This document shows, one piece after another, positions 8,423 through 25,968 of a stretch of 32,000 nt of DNA. The stretch spans positions 1,110,001 through 1,142,000 of the forward strand of contig NZ_JBHSTI010000008.1 in the NCBI RefSeq assembly GCF_042660085.1. Direction: 5' to 3'. Each line of letters starts with the position of its first letter. Position 1 is the stretch's first letter. A program made the position numbers and the translations under genes. The notes under the pieces were generated by a model. That model had not been told where the DNA came from and searched no databases. It was given only the letters and a program-made list of their open reading frames with translations. This DNA comes from Longivirga aurantiaca. GTDB taxonomy: Bacteria > Actinomycetota > Actinomycetes > S36-B12 > CAIYMF01.

Positions 8423-9301
8423 TCAACCGGTGGGCGGCGGGACGACCATCACCGGGCAGGCCGCGCCGTGGACCAGGGCGGCGGTCACCGAGCCCTGCCG
8501 CATCCCGAGGAAGTGGCCGCGTCCGTGGGCCCCGACCACGACGAGCTGAGCGGTCTGCGCTGCCTGCAGGAGCGCCGACGCCGGGTGCGCCTGGATCACG
8601 CGCATGTCGACCTCGAGGTCGGGGTAGTCGGCGCCGATCTCGTCCACCATCTGCGCGGCCAGCTGCTCGGCGCCCGCCTGCAGCTCGCGGGCCAGGTCGG
8701 GCGGTGGGAGGTAGATCCCGTAGCCGGTGGGGTTGAGGTCCTGCCATGCATGCACCATGAGCAGCCGCGAGCCGCGGCACGACGCCTCGTCGGCCGCAGC
8801 CCGGAGGGCGGCGTACGACGCCTTCGAGCCGTCGACGCCCACCGCGATGGGCCCGGTCGAACGATCAGCAGTCCCGTGCACGACCACGGCGGGGCAGTGC
8901 GCCTGCGCGCTCACGTGCCGGCTGACGGAGCCGAGCAGCACCTCGGCGACGCGCGAGCGACCGCGCGCTCCGACCACCACCATGCTCGCCTCCCCGCTCG
9001 CCGTCAGCATCGCCGACGCGGGATGCCCCGCGACGTGCTGGGCCGTGACCACCAGCTCCGGCCACGCGCGTGTCACGCGGGTGACTGCGTCGTCGACGTA
9101 CCCGGGGCGACCGCCCACGGTCGGGGTCGGGACCGCGGGAACGCCCGGCGTGACCGCCACCCAGTTGGGCTCGATCACGGTGAGCACGACGAGCGGCAGG
9201 CGGCGGAGCGCCGCCTCGTGGGCCGCCCAGTCCACGGCGGCGGTGGCTCCCGGGGACCCGTCCGTGCCGACGATGATCGGGAGTCTCGACCTGGTCATCA
9301 C
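8423..9301 (-). CDS. Tandem-domain universal stress protein, 292 aa
   Basis: ORF track. Two USP halves, each with the ATP-binding motif: VVVGARGRSRVAEVLLGSVSRHVSAQAHCPAVVV and LVVVGAHGRGHFLGMRQGSVTAALVHGAACPVMVV. GAGGAGG Shine-Dalgarno upstream of the ATG at 9301. Confidence 0.9.
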   Translation of the reverse strand: MMTRSRLPIIVGTDGSPGATAAVDWAAHEAALRRLPLVVLTVIEPNWVAVTPGVPAVPTPTVGGRPGYVDDAVTRVTRAWPELVVTAQHVAGHPASAMLTASGEASMVVVGARGRSRVAEVLLGSVSRHVSAQAHCPAVVVHGTADRSTGPIAVGVDGSKASYAALRAAADEASCRGSRLLMVHAWQDLNPTGYGIYLPPPDLARELQAGAEQLAAQMVDEIGADYPDLEVDMRVIQAHPASALLQAAQTAQLVVVGAHGRGHFLGMRQGSVTAALVHGAACPVMVVPPPTG

Positions 9302-10616: not shown

Positions 10617-10738
10617 CGGCGTACGTCGGGTGTCGAGCGTGTTCCGGGGCGCGCGCTCGGCGTACCCGGGTAACGGGAAAGGGGCGTAGCTGAGTGCCGA
10701 ATCCGTCCCAGAGCGCACGCTGGTTACCCGGGTAACGG
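10617..10738. repeat. REP-like repeat family: two adjacent units
   Basis: 10617-10675: GGCGTACGTCGGGTGTCGAGCGTGTTCCGGGGCGCGCGCTCGGCGTACCCGGGTAACG. 10681-10738: GGGGCGTAGCTGAGTGCCGAATCCGTCCCAGAGCGCACGCTGGTTACCCGGGTAACGG, with the perfect 14-bp palindrome GTTACCCGGGTAAC at 10723-10736. Confidence 0.85.
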
Positions 10739-10742
10739 CCGA

Positions 10743-10830
10743 TCAGTCGGTGGGGAGCGCGGGGCGGTGCATCACGGCCCAGGTGGGCGCGACCTCGACG
10801 CGGTCGTGGTAAGCCTTCGCGTCGCCGTCG
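10743..10830 (-). pseudogene. 3'-terminal stub of a PNPOx-like gene (paralogue of 21964..22287)
   Basis: The tail of track ORF 10743..11051 (...GDGDAKAYHDRVEVAPTWAVMHRPALPTD) matches the C-terminus of the 21964..22287 protein (DGDAHVEGDRMEVTPTWAVMHRPALAGD). 34 bp are identical (10756-10789 vs 21977-22010). Upstream of ~10830 the similarity is lost, and the ORF overlaps the start of the 10997 gene. Confidence 0.5.
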
Positions 10831-10996: not shown

Positions 10997-13900
10997 ATGA
11001 TGGGACGAACAGTGCGGGGCAGTCGGGCACGGGGTCGTACGGCTGGATCACCTCTTCGTCGCGGCGTGGTGGGCGCCTGCGTCCTCGCCCTCACCGCGTC
11101 GTTGCTGTCGATGACAGGGGCAGGCAGCGCGGTGGGTGCCTCCCTTCCCGCGGCCGTGGTCGCACCTCAGGCCGTGGACGCCGCTGCTGCCGTCCCGGCC
11201 AACGTGACCGTCGGGCGAGGGCACGCCTGCGCCCTCATGGCGACCGGATACGTGTGGTGCTGGGGGCGCAACGACCGCGGCCAGCTCGGCTACCCGAGCG
11301 CGACGACCCCCGGCGAGCCGCGCCCGGTGCCCGGCATCTCCACGGCGGTGCAGGTGGTCGCCGGCGATCTGCACACCTGCGCCCGGCTCACCGATGGCAC
11401 GGTGAAGTGCTGGGGGGCCAACGGTTCGGGTCAGCTCGGCAACGCCTTGACCGTCGACAGCTCGGCGCCGGTCGCAGCGATTGGGCTCTCGGGGGTCACC
11501 GATCTCACGGCTGGACGGGCGCACACGTGTGCCGTCGCGAACGGCCTCGTCTCGTGCTGGGGATCGAACGGGTTCGGCCAGCTCGGGCTCGGCAGTGTGC
11601 GCGAAGCGCGCCTCGGCCTGACCCAGTTGGCGCAGTTCTATGCGATCGGCGTCGGTTCGAACGCCACGGACGACAACGGGGACCTCGTGCTCTCCGACGC
11701 AGCGACCAACGGCACGCTCGGCAGCGGATCGGTCGTCCGGTACGGCGACGACGGCGTGATCAAGTCGTTCTGGAGCATCCCCGGAAGCACTCTCGTAGGT
11801 GGCGTCGCAACCGCCCGCGACGGGTCGCGCACCTACGTCGCCAGCGCGTTCCCGGGTCAGGCCGTGGTCTGGGTGCTGTCCGGTACGACGACGATCGAAC
11901 GCACGTGGAGCCTGGTGAGCAGCGTCCCGGGCTGCGTGACTGCGAGCTGCAGCGTCGTCGGCCTGACCACCGACGCCAACGGCACGGTCTACGCCGCGGT
12001 TCAGCGGTTCGATGGGGCCGGCGTCTCTCGAGCCTCGTTCATCGCGTCGGCGTCGAAGGAGGGACTCCCGCTCGGCGTGACCGATGTGACCGCTCAGATG
12101 ACCGTCATCTCCGACGTCACCTGGGTCCCGGGGGCGAACCGGGGGACGGTGTGGGTGCTCGGTACCAACCTGGTCAACCCGTCGCCCTTCAACCCGTCAC
12201 CCACCCTGTCGTCCTTCGCCATCCCGGCCACCGCCGGCTCGTCCCTGGTCTTCCTCAACAAGAAGTCGGCGTACGCCGCGGTGGAGAGCTGCGTGCCCTC
12301 GGAGGATTACGTGCTGGCGGATCAGACGACGCTCAGCGGCACTGCCTTCTACCGCCACCGACACACGTACCCGCTCGTCAACAGCCTCCGCCTCGGAACC
12401 GCAGCGGACGGCCAGCTGCTGCTCTCGGCCGACTACTCCCAGGGCCGGCGTCTGGAGAACACCTTCACGACCAACCCTGCGGCCCCGGTGGACATCCAGA
12501 CCAACTACACCAACGAGACGCCTGCCGAGGTCGCAGACTGCGTGATGGTCGTGGACCCCGCGGCCTCGTCAACGCAGGCAGCCAGCGTGGTCTTCACGGT
12601 CCGGGGCAGCGCGGGCGATCTCACGGATCTCCGGAAGCCGTTGGACGCAACGGAGTCCGGTGATGGCGGCATCATCGTCTCCGACCCCTCGTACGCCGCT
12701 GCCAGCCCCGCGAGGCTCCAGCGCTTCAACGCGGTGGGCTCGGTCACTCAGTGGGGCCGGGTGCCGATCCGCACGATCCCGACGCCGCTGATGCCGTTGC
12801 AGGCCCTGCAGCCCGGGCAGGCTGCACCGACCATGAGCAGCGTGTTCGCGGGTGCGCATCACACGTGCGCTTCCGGCGTCGTGAACGGCCAGCCGACCAC
12901 GCTGTGCTGGGGCAGCAGCTCCTCCGGCCAGACGGGATGGCCCGCCTCGGGCGCGTCGGCCCTGCGCTTCGGCCTCCCTCCGTCGGACACCGGCGACCAG
13001 AGCAGCTTCCCGATCGCCATGCCCGTGATCGGCGCCGGAGTGGGCAGCGGCGGTCTGGCGCACACGTGCATCGCCCAGAACGGGTCGCCTCGTCAGATGA
13101 CCTGCTGGGGCGCCAACGACAGCGGCCAGACGCGGCTCAACACGGTCGAGGGCGACATCTGGCGGAACGGCGGCACTCCCACGACCGTGCCGGTGACCGA
13201 GCTGGACTCAGGCGACCTCACCACGTGCACGATCGAGTCCACCGACCTGAAGCGCGTGCAGTGCTACGGATCGGACGCTTACGGGCAGACCTCGGTGCGT
13301 CCGGGCGCGTGCCTGAACAACCTGGACTTCGTGCAGACGGCCGGCTGCCAGCAGGTCGGTGGAGCGATGCACATCTCCGCCGGGCCTACCACGACGTGCG
13401 CTGCGACCGCCACCGGCATCGTCTGCTGGGGCGACAACGCGTGGGGGACTCTGGCGACGTATGGCTCGCCTCTGGGCGCCGTCGGCGTCCCGCTCGAGGT
13501 GCCGAGCACGTTCATCGTGAGCGCCCCCGCGACGCTCGATGGAAGCCTCGTGGCGCGGTTCGGCACCAACCTGGACGCGCTCGACGCCACGACCGACGTG
13601 GTGCTCCGCGTCAAGGGATCGGCGAGTGCCCTGGCAAGCACGAAGAGTGTGTCGGCCGACCGTCGGACAGTGAGCATCAAGCCGGCAGCGCCACTCGTCG
13701 CCGGGCAGCAGTACGAAGTCGCAGTCAACACCGGCAGCGCCACAGCGCTCACCTCCGGCGGCCTGCCGCTGACCCCGTCCGTGGTGAGTGCCAGAGCCGC
13801 GACGGCGCTGGGTGACACCAGCCCGGCCAATACGGCGGCCTGGCCAAAGGTCAGCAGCAGCACAGCCCTGGGGGGCTCGTACGTGACGGAGCGGACGGCA

Positions 13901-14515
13901 GGAGCATCCGCGAAGTTCGCGTTCACGGGCAGCTCCGTCGCCCTGCTGACGCGCAAGGGGCCGAGCCAGGGCAAGGTCGTGGTCTCGGTCGGCGCGGTAT
14001 CCAAGACGTTGGACCTGTACTCCGCCACTGCCGTCAACCGGTTCAAGGTCGCCCTCACCGGTCTCGGCGCCGGCCCCCACACGCTGACGGTCAAGGTGCT
14101 GGGCACCCGCAACACCAGGTCGACGGGCACCTCGGTGGCGATCGACGGGTTCTCGGTGGGAGCGGTCACCTCGGCCACGCCGACCTTGACTCCTTCCTGG
14201 GCAGCTGTGTCCTCCTCGACCGCTTCGGCGAAGCGATACGTCCGCTCCCAGCAGGCAGGCGCCACGTACACGGTCACGTTCCGCGGCACACGCATCAACT
14301 GGCTGACGTTCGTAGGCCCCGACTTCGGTGACGCCAAGGTCGTGATCGACGGGAAGGCGAAGGGGACGTTCGCGCTCTACGCGACGGCCACGAAGGCCCG
14401 CACGGTCGCCTTCACGGGGCTGACCGACGCGGTGCACAAGCTGACCGTCACCGTCGCGGGCACGGGCACGGGCACCAAGGACTTCGTCGCAGTCGACGGT
14501 TGGACCGTCTCATGA
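10997..14515 (+). CDS. Giant secreted RCC1-repeat protein (1172 aa): signal peptide, 3 RCC1 blades, ~410-aa NHL-like insert, ~4 RCC1 blades, Ig-like domain, two tandem ~110-aa C-terminal beta-sandwich-like domains
   Basis: GGGGAGG Shine-Dalgarno 7 nt before the ATG at 10997. The N-terminus has an RR-containing basic region plus a hydrophobic core (SPLRRGVVGACVLALTASLL). RCC1 signatures occur about 7 times: GYVWCWGRNDRGQLG, GTVKCWGANGSGQLG, LVSCWGSNGFGQLG (nt 11201-11596), then TTLCWGSSSSGQTG, QMTCWGANDSGQT, VQCYGSDAYGQT, IVCWGDNAWGTL (nt 12830-13462). The C-terminal tandem domains at 13829-14188 and 14189-14512 align by eye (W..VSSST......YV......GA...F.F.G........GP..G...V..........DLY...). 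Confidence 0.9.
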   Translation: MMGRTVRGSRARGRTAGSPLRRGVVGACVLALTASLLSMTGAGSAVGASLPAAVVAPQAVDAAAAVPANVTVGRGHACALMATGYVWCWGRNDRGQLGYPSATTPGEPRPVPGISTAVQVVAGDLHTCARLTDGTVKCWGANGSGQLGNALTVDSSAPVAAIGLSGVTDLTAGRAHTCAVANGLVSCWGSNGFGQLGLGSVREARLGLTQLAQFYAIGVGSNATDDNGDLVLSDAATNGTLGSGSVVRYGDDGVIKSFWSIPGSTLVGGVATARDGSRTYVASAFPGQAVVWVLSGTTTIERTWSLVSSVPGCVTASCSVVGLTTDANGTVYAAVQRFDGAGVSRASFIASASKEGLPLGVTDVTAQMTVISDVTWVPGANRGTVWVLGTNLVNPSPFNPSPTLSSFAIPATAGSSLVFLNKKSAYAAVESCVPSEDYVLADQTTLSGTAFYRHRHTYPLVNSLRLGTAADGQLLLSADYSQGRRLENTFTTNPAAPVDIQTNYTNETPAEVADCVMVVDPAASSTQAASVVFTVRGSAGDLTDLRKPLDATESGDGGIIVSDPSYAAASPARLQRFNAVGSVTQWGRVPIRTIPTPLMPLQALQPGQAAPTMSSVFAGAHHTCASGVVNGQPTTLCWGSSSSGQTGWPASGASALRFGLPPSDTGDQSSFPIAMPVIGAGVGSGGLAHTCIAQNGSPRQMTCWGANDSGQTRLNTVEGDIWRNGGTPTTVPVTELDSGDLTTCTIESTDLKRVQCYGSDAYGQTSVRPGACLNNLDFVQTAGCQQVGGAMHISAGPTTTCAATATGIVCWGDNAWGTLATYGSPLGAVGVPLEVPSTFIVSAPATLDGSLVARFGTNLDALDATTDVVLRVKGSASALASTKSVSADRRTVSIKPAAPLVAGQQYEVAVNTGSATALTSGGLPLTPSVVSARAATALGDTSPANTAAWPKVSSSTALGGSYVTERTAGASAKFAFTGSSVALLTRKGPSQGKVVVSVGAVSKTLDLYSATAVNRFKVALTGLGAGPHTLTVKVLGTRNTRSTGTSVAIDGFSVGAVTSATPTLTPSWAAVSSSTASAKRYVRSQQAGATYTVTFRGTRINWLTFVGPDFGDAKVVIDGKAKGTFALYATATKARTVAFTGLTDAVHKLTVTVAGTGTGTKDFVAVDGWTVS

Positions 14516-17500
14516 GCACCGCAACCCGTGTCCGCCTCACCTCGAAGGGCTCCATGCCGATGTCTCGCTTCACCGCCCTCCTCTGCGTGGGTGTGATGCT
14601 GTCCCTCGGGCTGGGTGCGGCGTCCTCCTACTCCTCTGGCGCCGAGGCGGCGACCGCAACGGCGACCGCGGCGGTTGTCCCAGCGGCGGCACCGGCGCCG
14701 GGCAGCGAGTGCCTCGATGACGTGACCGGCGAGTCCGAGCCGTGCGACTTCGGGATGGAGCCGGTGCGCTTCCCGTCCGGTCGCACGATCGGCGAGTACG
14801 AGAGCGCGGTGCTGACCCGCAGCGCGGCCAACCGCGCCTCGACCGTGTCGATGAACGACTTCACCACCGGGGTCCTGCTCGGCTCCTGCGTCCCTGACGT
14901 CGCATCGTGCGGCCTGGACAACCGCGTCCGAGTCGGCGACGACGGCCCGTTGTACACGGACGCGACCCCGGTCCTCCCGTCGTCGGCGTCGACCACCGTC
15001 GGTGACACCGCCGTGGCGAAGGCCGACTTCAATGGCGACGGCCGCGAGGACGTCGTCACTGCGGCGCTGTGCCCCGTGCTGGGAGGCGGCACGCCGAGCG
15101 AGATCTGCCTTCGGGCGTACGACCCTGACACGGACTCGTGGTCGTCGTGGAGCCCGACGGGTCTGGTGGCGGACTCGGTGAAGGCCGTGGGACGCATCAA
15201 GCTCGCTGCCGGACGGATCGCGCAGACGACGGCGAAGGTGACGGGAGCGTCCTTCACCACGTCGGCTGACGGCTCGAACCTCCTCATGCGCCTCACGACG
15301 GACATCCCCCACCGCCTCACCACGAGCGATGCGCTGCGGTTCGACGCGGCCGGCGTGGCCGAGCTTGCTTCCGCGCTGTGCCTTCCGGCCGATGACGACG
15401 GCACCGAGCCGTTGTGCGCGGGAGATCTCGCCGAGGGGCTGTGGCCGATCGAGTCGATCGCGACCGATCGCCTCTCCTTCGTCGTGGCACTGGGGACGCT
15501 TCAGGACGCGAGCGCCACGGCGACCTGCCCTCCGGAGGGCTTCCGCTGCCTCGCGGACGGCACCCGTGAGCCCTTGGACTGGAGCAGCGACACCGGGTTC
15601 GGCGTCACGGGGACCAACCAGGGCCTCGCCGTGGCCTGGGTCGCGCCTTCGGCCTCGGTGCAGCTCGCGACGTTCATCGTCCGACTGGGCACGACGGCGC
15701 CGTTCTCTCTCAGCGACGTCCACTCCGTCGGTGTGAGCACAGGTGCCCGACAGCCGCTCGACGTCGTGACGGGGGACTTCAACGGGGGAGCCCCCGACGA
15801 GATCGCAGTCGGCTTCGGCAGCACCTGCACCGGCCTTGCCTGCCTGCGCGTGCGCATCTTCCGCTGGAACGACTCCAAGCAGCTGGTCCCTGTCGGAGCG
15901 GCCAACGCACCCGCGGATGCTCCGAAGATGTCCGGAAACGCGAATCTGACCGTGTCGTCCGTCTCCCTCGCGTCCGGGCGGCTCACCAAGGCTGCCGGGA
16001 CCAACCTCGACGGCGACGACCTGCTCGTCGCCGTCCAGAGCACCAGCGGAACGATCGGGTGCCCGGTGCTGCAGGCGTGCATGGCCAGGTACGCCATCAC
16101 GTACGACGTCGCAGGGGACTTCGTCCCGAAGGCAGCTGCAACCACGCTGATCGAGACGGGCAGCGAGGGTCTGGTCGCTTCCCGGTACTCGTTCGTGGCC
16201 GCCGCCGCCGACTTCGACGGTGACGGCATGGACGACCCGGTCATCGGGAGGACCACGACCCAGCTCCTCGGCACTACCGAGAGCCGGGCCGCCTTCACGG
16301 TGATCACGACCCTGTCGTCGACAGGCACCCGCCTGACGTTCAACGGGGACGACGACATGCGCGCTGTCGGTGTCGGCGGCTCAGGACAGCTGGCGCTCGC
16401 AGCCGGGCAGGTCGGGTCTCTCGAGGACGCGAGCAGCCAAGGCTTCCCGAACGCGATCAACCCCGACATCGTCCTCGCGTGGACCTGCGTAGACACGGCC
16501 TCGTGCGGAGCTTCGGCGAGCGGCTCCAGCGTCGCCATCCTGCCGATCGCCGTGAAGATCCAGGCGACGCCTGAGTTCTTCCCCAAGGGCAAGGACAAGC
16601 TCAGCCCGAGCGACGACGGCGGCATCCCGAGCGTCCTGCCCGCGGCGCCGCTCCCTGCGACGTACAACGCGATCACGAGCGAGGCGACGCACGTGGCGCT
16701 CGCCCTGCCCGACCTGGATGCGGACAGCCAGACGCTGGGGACGCCTGTCACCTACGTGACCGTCGGCGAGGTCCGGCCCCTCATGATCCTGCGCTCGCCG
16801 CCCGTCCACTTCGACGCGTTCCCGGCGCTCATCACGAACGACGGCAAGGTCTCCTTCACCGAGACCCGAGACACCAACGGGTGCTTCGGCGCGAAGACTC
16901 CGTCCGACTGCGACGTCGCCACCGTGTACTCGTCGACGTCGACGCTCACCAGCTCGATCGCAGGAAGCATCAACAACTCGTGGGGCATCGGGGGATCGGT
17001 CGGCTTCAACACATGGTTCGGCGATACCAAGGAGACGAAGGCCGGCGTCACGAAGTGCCAGACCGGTGTCTGCGCCGAGCTGACCGTCCTGCTGGAGACC
17101 GAGTACAACGGGGAGCAGGCCGACACCACCAAGGCCGGCACCAACTTCACGTACTCGTTCAGCAAGACCGCTCTCGCCGGCTCCGACGAGGTTCTCGCCT
17201 TCACCGCAGCGACCGAGACGACCGAGTACCCGATCTACCCCGGCACGTCCGTCTTCGGTGGCGAGCTCGAGCCGGGGCGGTACGTCCGCGTCGACAGCCC
17301 CGTCCAGTCGACGCTGGCATGGCGCAGCGCGACCGACCCGGAGATCACCTCGAGCGGCTGGCAGCACTCGGTGCCGGGCAACATCCTCTCCTACCCCAAG
17401 TCCGCGAACACGCTCCCGACCGACACGAAGGCGGTCAAGGAGGCGGAGAAGATCGGCCCGCAGACCGTGCGGATCACCACGACCGGCGATCACGGATACA

Positions 17501-25702: not shown

Positions 25703-25858
25703 ACGCAGGTGGGTGGGAAACGTGTTGCGGGGCGCACGCTCGGCTTACCCGGGTAACGAGCGTGCGGTAGAGCGCACGCTGGTTACCCGGGTAACGAGCG
25801 TGGGGCGAAGCTGAGTGCGGAATCCGTCGCAGAGCGCACGCTGGTTACCCGGGTAACG
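25703..25858. repeat. REP-like repeat family: array of ~3 units (one truncated)
   Basis: Units at ~25703-25760, 25761-25797 and 25798-25858. Long near-palindromes are present, e.g. CACGCTgGTTACCC/GGGTAACgAGCGTG, with perfect GTTACCCGGGTAAC at 25782-25795 and 25844-25857. The terminal residues of track ORF 25058..25756 are encoded by this repeat. Confidence 0.88.
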
Positions 25859-25863
25859 GCCGA

Positions 25864-25968
25864 TCAGTCGGTGGCGAGCGCGGGGCGGTGCACCACGGCC
25901 CAGGTGGTGGCGATCTCGATGCGGTCGAGCTTGGCGGCCAGGTCCTCGAGCGGTACGGCGATGCTCAT
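25864..25968 (-). pseudogene. PNPOx-like paralogue with an in-frame ~219-bp internal deletion (34 codons left)
   Basis: MSIAVPLEDLAAKL|DRIEIATTWAVVHRPALATD keeps the first 14 and last ~20 residues of the 107-aa protein at 21964..22287. The upstream leader 25969-26033 is near-identical to 22288-22352. Confidence 0.55.

Follow-up and report, generated by a model that had tools for sequence, protein, structure and literature searches.

A predicted RCC1 propeller interrupted by an SGL-like domain in a probably exported protein of Longivirga aurantiaca

Results

The window analyzed here is a stretch of 32,000 nucleotides from Longivirga aurantiaca (NCBI RefSeq assembly GCF_042660085.1, contig NZ_JBHSTI010000008.1, positions 1,110,001 to 1,142,000 of the forward strand), and its subject is one gene encoding a multidomain protein, P0001, in which an RCC1-type beta-propeller appears to be interrupted by a second, propeller-type domain. 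The ribosome-binding site GGGGAGG is found 7-8 nt 5′ of the ATG, and the G+C content at third codon positions is 0.87 in a window with an overall G+C content of 72%. The N-terminus holds an arginine-rich n-region with an RR pair, then a hydrophobic core and A-V-G-A before Ser49, and is probably an export signal by which the protein would be secreted. The whole protein matched none of the NCBIfam families at E ≤ 1, and no paralogue was found in its own genome. The parts of the gene are, in coordinates of the window:

10997-14515 (+): whole gene, a single open reading frame with an upstream ribosome-binding site, encoding the 1172-residue, probably exported multidomain protein
10997-11140 (+): probable export signal, residues 1-48, read from sequence
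11195-11602 (+): RCC1 blades 1-3, residues ~67-202; three Pfam RCC1/RCC1_2 stretches, predicted with high confidence
11603-12769 (+): inserted domain, residues ~203-591, ~389 residues; the stretch that 22 contiguous RCC1 domains leave open when aligned
11651-12268 (+): insert blades I-IV, residues 219-424; profile alignment (hhalign) to SGL, BLASTP and predicted meanders
12377-12466 (+): insert partial blade V, residues 461-490; three predicted strands, no profile match
12476-12763 (+): insert end predicted with low confidence, with NHL-like unit VI, residues 494-589
12770-13501 (+): RCC1 return strand and blades 4-7, residues 592-835; Pfam RCC1_2, colinearity and structure prediction
13535-13744 (+): immunoglobulin (Ig)-like domain resembling Big_5, residues 847-916; Pfam Big_5, E 3e-5
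13838-14509 (+): two tandem CE2_N-like beta-sandwich modules, residues ~948-1053 and ~1067-1171; two Pfam CE2_N stretches, E 1.2e-6

Seven C-W/Y-G motifs, each invariant across the family members, are located at residues 88-90, 138-140, 187-189, 637-639, 703-705, 756-758 and 810-812, and the spacing between successive motifs is 50, 49, 450, 66, 53 and 54 residues. The whole protein scored 94.8 bits against RCC1_2 (E 1.8e-27, cut-off 22) and 65.9 bits against RCC1 (E 4.9e-18, cut-off 21.7), above the Pfam repeat cut-offs of these families (PF00415, PF13540). When scored by itself, the N-terminal piece yielded three RCC1 stretches (RCC1/RCC1_2, E about 1e-24 to 1e-28), and the C-terminal piece four RCC1_2 stretches that were weaker than the N-terminal three (E 1.1e-7, 31.8 bits). 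The whole-domain model of the RCC1-like domain (RLD, PF25390) gave 123.9 bits, under its cut-off of 150 bits, which we attribute to the interruption of the RCC1 domain. For comparison, 80 metagenome RCC1 loci were fetched, and the 22 with exactly seven regularly spaced blades were kept and aligned with residues 48-848 of six family members (alignment A5). All 22 contiguous domains were colinear with the 3+4 arrangement and left one gap, each domain placing about 153 residues on the N-terminal part and about 205-220 on the C-terminal part, and the conserved RCC1 proline of the contiguous domains aligned to P595. The comparison supports a count of 3+4=7 blades with a single insertion point in one loop. 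The initial annotation had proposed three RCC1 blades at the N-terminal side and four at the C-terminal side, and this is borne out by the motif positions, the Pfam stretches and the alignment with the 22 domains.

The insertion site lies after the GQLGLGSVR loop, which contains the third GQLG motif, and before the Pro-containing strand RTIPTP. An insert of ~410 residues at 11597-12829 had been suggested at the outset; a large insert is indeed present between blades 3 and 4, but its size is ~389 residues. About 14 residues of each contiguous domain fall in the range first suggested, three of them where it begins and about ten opposite residues 592-601, and the insert proper comprises residues ~204-591 (window ~11603-12769). 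The 3′ limit at 12829 was thus about 60 nt too far, since the ~20 residues encoded 3′ of 12769 belong to the RCC1 ring, to which they are assigned because the 22 contiguous RCC1 domains align there. Irregular motif spacing was also seen among the 80 metagenome RCC1 loci, and in six such loci checked in Pfam it was mostly due to extra degenerate RCC1 repeats; no non-RCC1 domain was recognized by Pfam in these six. Two loci (L099:2920-4716 and L081:2809-4431) have six regular motifs and then a spacing of ~265 residues before the last motif, and they matched RCC1-type families only (8 and 6 RCC1 stretches, respectively). This long spacing may represent degenerate blades rather than an insert.

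The relationship of the insert was examined by comparing profiles. When the insert alignment (A3) was aligned by hhalign with 22 SGL (SMP-30/gluconolactonase/LRE-like) domains from related genomes, insert residues 9-188 corresponded to SGL positions 76-239 of 246 with 94.7% probability and E 6e-8, and no counterpart of the blades at SGL positions 1-75 was recognizable in the insert. The sole non-self match in the first genome search was a 307-residue protein of a congener with a full SGL domain (PF08450, E 5e-60), which is 32% identical to insert residues 23-136 (BLASTP, 120 residues). When 401 genomes of the class were searched by profile, the best non-self match was an SGL protein from another family (E 1.4e-4), aligned to the same query region, and a PhoX-type propeller was also among the matches. 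The NHL propellers of relatives reached at best 65% probability and E 6e-5 in profile-profile comparison, in several registers, which is consistent with NHL similarity as clan-level kinship only; the NHL repeat (PF01436) gave no match at E ≤ 1e-5 in the genome from which the window derives. Against PDB sequences, the insert had no relative either as a single sequence or as a six-sequence profile.

The structural D..G and glycine positions of the SGL blades are kept in the insert. Three polar residues (N87, N133 and D183 in local SGL numbering) are conserved in 100% of the 22 SGL domains, and their counterparts across the six family members are G/D, G and V/T/Q/L, respectively. We take these three residues to be metal or substrate ligands of SMP30-type enzymes. 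On these profile alignments the insert is akin to the SGL/NHL clan and closest to SGL, but as an enzyme it does not belong to SGL.

By eye, six motif units can be made out in the insert, the last two carrying extra loops of ~40 residues, and all six blade-like strings quoted in the initial annotation are present. The periodicity implied by these strings exceeds chance in the first half, as judged by the E of 6e-8 to SGL blades, but the last unit is weak. This unit VI has the NHL-like pattern DGG..V.D ... RL.R ... G.V..WGRV; its self-match to unit I is weak (hhalign E 0.25), and with a repeat hidden Markov model (HMM) it stood above shuffles in one of the six sequences, while unit V received no support. 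The early suggestion that the insert is NHL/SGL-like accordingly holds for the first ~180 residues, which are homologous to blades of six-bladed propellers of the SGL/NHL clan.

The structure of residues 48-848 (801 residues) was predicted with AlphaFold 2 (AF2) from the custom alignment A5. The mean predicted local distance difference test score (pLDDT) was 63.6 and the predicted template modelling score (pTM) 0.54. RCC1 blades 1-3 were modelled with pLDDT 90-97 and blades 4-7 with pLDDT 70-90 and loose loops. In the insert, residues 219-424 formed four successive four-stranded meanders (pLDDT 70-88), residues 461-490 three further strands (pLDDT about 45-60), and residues 591-597 a strand on the return to the RCC1 part (pLDDT ~73). 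A pTM of 0.54 over 801 residues corresponds to some 430 residue equivalents that are well placed, a number beyond the reach of any one segment. By our own estimate, which is not the output of a tool, the pTM would be 0.31-0.35 if the two RCC1 parts were mutually unfixed, and because the observed value exceeds this, the N- and C-terminal RCC1 parts are taken to lie in one frame. Together with the high pLDDT of both RCC1 parts and the colinear alignment, this suggests that the 3+4 blades would close one ring.

Searching the whole model against the PDB with Foldseek placed RCC2, UVR8, RPGR, the RLDs of HERC1/2, RCC1 and BLIP-II on top (E 1e-14 to 1e-9), BLIP-II having the highest sequence identity among these matches (19-22%). 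The template modelling (TM) scores were 0.31-0.36, with a root-mean-square deviation of ~22 Å over ~400 contiguous columns, none of the alignments bridging the insert. Some three blades can be superposed, after which the chain runs into the blades of the insert, and these depart from the course of the RCC1 ring. The model therefore shows no hybrid ring built from RCC1 blades 1-3 and insert blades, as these contiguous alignments of low TM score indicate, and this is a second, indirect argument for closure of the RCC1 ring.

The insert family is small, with about seven sequences in two clades and one named member, from Nocardioides taihuensis. Five orthologues of P0001 are 77-99% identical to it and two are ~31% identical. 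A word-indexed search of 5.8 billion proteins returned four relatives with 78-99% identity, and an exhaustive phmmer search of 1.84 billion cluster representatives returned two clusters only, that of P0001 itself and that of a hypothetical protein of N. taihuensis. The latter matched the insert with E 5e-5, is 31% identical to P0001 over its full length, and has its parts in the same order: three RCC1 blades, the insert, four blades, the Ig-like domain and two CE2_N-like modules. A further relative is 81% identical to the N. taihuensis protein. When 185,579 species genomes were scanned by pattern, N. taihuensis alone was found, and a pattern scan of JGI metagenomes found no member. The 401 genomes of the class and 27 genomes of the same genus held only weak matches to unrelated propeller proteins, those in the class and in a set of 61 relatives being to SGL or PhoX.

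Within clades, the ratio of nonsynonymous to synonymous substitution rates (dN/dS) was 0.12-0.22 for the insert; blades 1-3 gave 0.06-0.16, blades 4-7 gave 0.09-0.20, and the tail gave 0.16-0.37. The half of the insert predicted with low confidence (residues 425-591) had a dN/dS of 0.15-0.20 and is constrained like the other half; purifying selection acts on the insert in both of its halves. No part of the protein differs more between clades than the insert, with 25% identity compared to 57% for blades 1-3. The densest run of residues invariant between the two clades falls in the last ~55 residues of the insert, which contain unit VI (T543, D544, D550, T552, D556-G558, V561, D563, P571, R573, L574, R576, G581, V583 and W586-V589). 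This conserved end fits, without proving, a closing blade beside the RCC1 junction. The view of the insert as a folded, selected, beta-rich domain is supported. An intein, a mobile element and mis-assembly were rejected in view of the uniform single reading frame, the lack of a Hint or transposase signal, the occurrence in independent samples and the purifying selection.

Behind the propeller part, the Big_5-like domain scored 25.0 bits against a cut-off of 23.6 bits when the C-terminal piece was scored by itself, and it has weak CopC-like matches in the PDB. The combination of the Ig-like domain with two CE2_N-like modules recurs in other proteins (P0008-P0043) behind GH25 muramidase and NlpC/P60 heads and Kelch, PQQ and Sortilin/BNR propellers. 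Since the same tail sits behind such varied extracellular heads, its distribution suggests an extracellular carrier or anchor module of general use. An uninterrupted parent protein with the same tail was not found in the tail search, whose matches carry other head domains.

The RCC1 gene is directly followed by a large partner gene, with which it shares an ATGA at its stop codon:

14512-19227 (+): partner gene encoding 1571 residues, translationally coupled by an ATGA overlap at 14512-14515; weak FG-GAP-like matches

The two genes are adjacent in all five other loci examined (L003, L004/L005, L006, L007 and L008). There they overlap by 1-4 nt or lie 38-62 nt apart, and their neighbours on either side are unrelated from one locus to the next. 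The partner matched Pfam only weakly, as FG-GAP, and had no match in the PDB; neither of the two large proteins matched the PADLOC models of defence systems. The pair is a rare, patchily distributed, probably extracellular two-gene module. Just downstream of it and convergent with it (19322-21838, - strand) lies the gene of an 838-residue LuxR-type STAND regulator (AAA_16 and GerE), and the 82%-identical locus L007 likewise has a convergent regulator of this type just downstream of its pair (L007:9183-10408). Two direct repeats of 156 nt with 88% identity (10651-10806 and 25772-25927) bound a segment of ~15 kb that holds the pair and the LuxR-type regulator. A related repeat unit of 89 nt is located at 21966-22054. 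In locus L004 (L004:983-9692) the pair follows genes with HNH, NERD, Fic, ADP-ribosylglycohydrolase and helicase domains, an arrangement resembling a defence island.

The gene of P0001 and that of its closest full-length relative, P0003 on contig L008, are 92-94% identical in nucleotide sequence outside residues ~201-420, but across these residues the identity drops to 75%, as low as between distinct lineages. Nucleotide identity and synonymous divergence (dS) mark out this mosaic tract between the two genes:

11597-12260 of the window, aligned to L008:2333-2995: mosaic tract, beginning at the junction of RCC1 and insert and ending at the end of blade IV

The dS is 1.2 in the tract and 0.19 in its flanks, and P0003 has a version of the tract that is not close to any other known allele. 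Either recombination has replaced the SGL-like blades, or L008 is a chimeric contig assembled at low coverage from a metagenome.

Discussion

The nested-domain architecture of P0001 is judged to be real and conserved. The interpretation that we favour, and consider likely, is a head in which a seven-bladed RCC1 ring carries, in a single loop, a propeller-type domain of the SGL clan that is catalytically dead; as to whether this inner domain is a complete six-bladed ring, the chances appear about even. A number of observations weigh against this interpretation. When the insert was compared with Pfam at E ≤ 10 no family was matched, SGL, NHL, PD40, Reg_prop and Lactonase included, so that the proposal to recognize the insert by NHL, SGL or YVTN-type HMMs failed even at this lenient threshold. 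No profile matched the second half of the insert significantly, and the insert alignment has a depth of only six sequences from two clades. Of the separate propeller that had been anticipated, structure prediction drew four four-stranded blades and part of a fifth, but residues 494-589 came out as coil with pLDDT 25-35, i.e. with low confidence. We infer the closure of both the RCC1 ring and the inner propeller, neither of which is seen directly. Binding, secretion and the partnership with the downstream protein are likewise proposals, drawn from sequence.

In the main alternative the RCC1 ring is closed but the insert stays open, as an arc of four or five SGL-like blades with an irregular or flexible region, leaning on the side of the ring. 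This alternative, which we hold to be unlikely, agrees with the four full blades and three strands of a fifth in the model, with the low pLDDT of residues 494-589, with an SGL profile match that ends at insert residue ~188 and with the weak internal-repeat signal of units V and VI. It is harder to reconcile with the geometry, in that a single RCC1 loop has to accommodate both termini of the insert, which brings them together as in a closed propeller, and with unit VI, which has the pattern of unit I (D-G-x-hydrophobic...R-hydrophobic-x-R/F...G) and is the insert stretch most conserved between the clades. The purifying selection on the low-confidence half of the insert also speaks against it, and we know of no open partial propellers that are stable domains. 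Another alternative is that the two RCC1 arrays are separate arcs, or parts of rings formed between chains as in a domain-swapped dimer, with the insert as a spacer. It draws on the lack of a directly seen ring closure and on the RLD score of 123.9 against 150 bits, but the blades number exactly seven and align colinearly over their full length with contiguous seven-blade domains, the 3+4 split is kept at 31% identity, and both arrays were modelled with high pLDDT at a pTM of 0.54. To our knowledge RCC1 domains of three or four blades do not occur, and altogether we find separate arcs quite improbable.

Least probable is an insert that is an active lactonase or hydrolase of the SGL type, carried by the RCC1 ring. 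Homology of the insert to SGL blades 3-6 would allow for such an activity, as would the presence of the same tail modules behind enzymes (GH25, NlpC/P60), but none of the six family members retains the three polar residues that SGL keeps invariant, the N-terminal SGL blades with the invariant glutamate are undetectable, and there is no Pfam match to SGL.

According to the favoured nested-domain interpretation, the chain would form RCC1 blades 1-3, leave the ring in the loop past the third CWG...GQLG motif and fold a separate propeller-type domain of the six-bladed SGL/NHL clan. It would then re-enter as the Pro-containing strand 591-597 and complete blades 4-7, so that the 3+4 blades would close a seven-bladed ring. 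For the inner domain, four or more regular blades are predicted, and six are probable, the last two of them with long loops. This domain would keep the structural Asp and Gly motifs of SGL, and because the invariant polar residues of the SGL active site are lost, one may speculate that it acts as a binding surface and not as a lactonase. An Ig-like spacer and two CE2_N-like sandwiches, which resemble carbohydrate-binding modules (CBM), would follow, and the protein would be made together with its 1571-residue FG-GAP-like partner. With much lower confidence than we attach to the architecture, P0001 may thus be a secreted, non-enzymatic binding protein.

Insertion of domains into propellers is well documented; for an insert that is a propeller in its own right, no described case was found. 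The N-terminal RLD of human UBR5 is interrupted by UBA and double small-beta-barrel domains (Nat Chem Biol 2023, PMC10830417). As in the layout proposed for P0001, the chain leaves a seven-bladed propeller of the RCC1 type, folds another domain and returns, and one of the insertions exceeds 220 residues (PMC10830417). UBR5 differs in being eukaryotic and cytosolic with small UBA and barrel inserts, whereas P0001 is bacterial and probably secreted and has one insert of ~389 residues from the same fold class as its host. In integrins, the I domain of the alpha-subunit is a vWA domain inserted in an FG-GAP beta-propeller (Sci Adv 2025, PMC12422189). This is the standard example of a binding head made by insertion, a ligand-binding domain being looped out from an extracellular seven-bladed propeller, as may be the case here; it is unlike P0001 in that the host is FG-GAP and not RCC1, the insert a Rossmann-like vWA domain with a metal ion-dependent adhesion site (MIDAS), and the organisms metazoan.

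SGL proteins (PF08450) are the nearest counterpart of the insert itself, through the alignment of insert residues 9-188 to profile positions 76-239 and the retained structural motifs. They are, however, stand-alone enzymes of ~300 residues, and the insert lacks the Pfam match, the invariant polar residues and the blades of SGL positions 1-75. BLIP-II of Streptomyces (PDB 3qhy, 3qi0) is alike in being a secreted actinobacterial propeller of the RCC1 type, with a purely protein-binding surface; unlike P0001 it is an uninterrupted single domain of ~270 residues, and no link to beta-lactamase was seen for P0001. No relevant paper on a propeller inserted in a propeller was found in 8.4 million full texts, and insertions are unmentioned in one survey of propeller evolution.

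The mosaic tract invites the speculation that the nested propeller is a swappable specificity head, with blades I-IV exchanged as a cassette between alleles while the frame of RCC1, Ig-like and CBM-like domains stays constant, an idea that we consider doubtful at present. If true, it would be the first described beta-propeller inserted in a loop of another, and the cassette head together with its co-translated, giant FG-GAP-like protein would constitute an undescribed two-component system for extracellular recognition in Nocardioides-type actinobacteria. Should a structure confirm the nested architecture, P0001 would provide a compact natural example of same-fold nesting, in which a catalytic propeller family (SGL) has been recruited as a dead binding module. 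It would then be useful for studies of protein evolution, for design, and as a test of structure predictors on shallow alignments. An experimental entry point is given by N. taihuensis, which is a cultured type strain. In its locus (L003), a sortase gene is located at 8467-9153, ~850 nt upstream of the pair.

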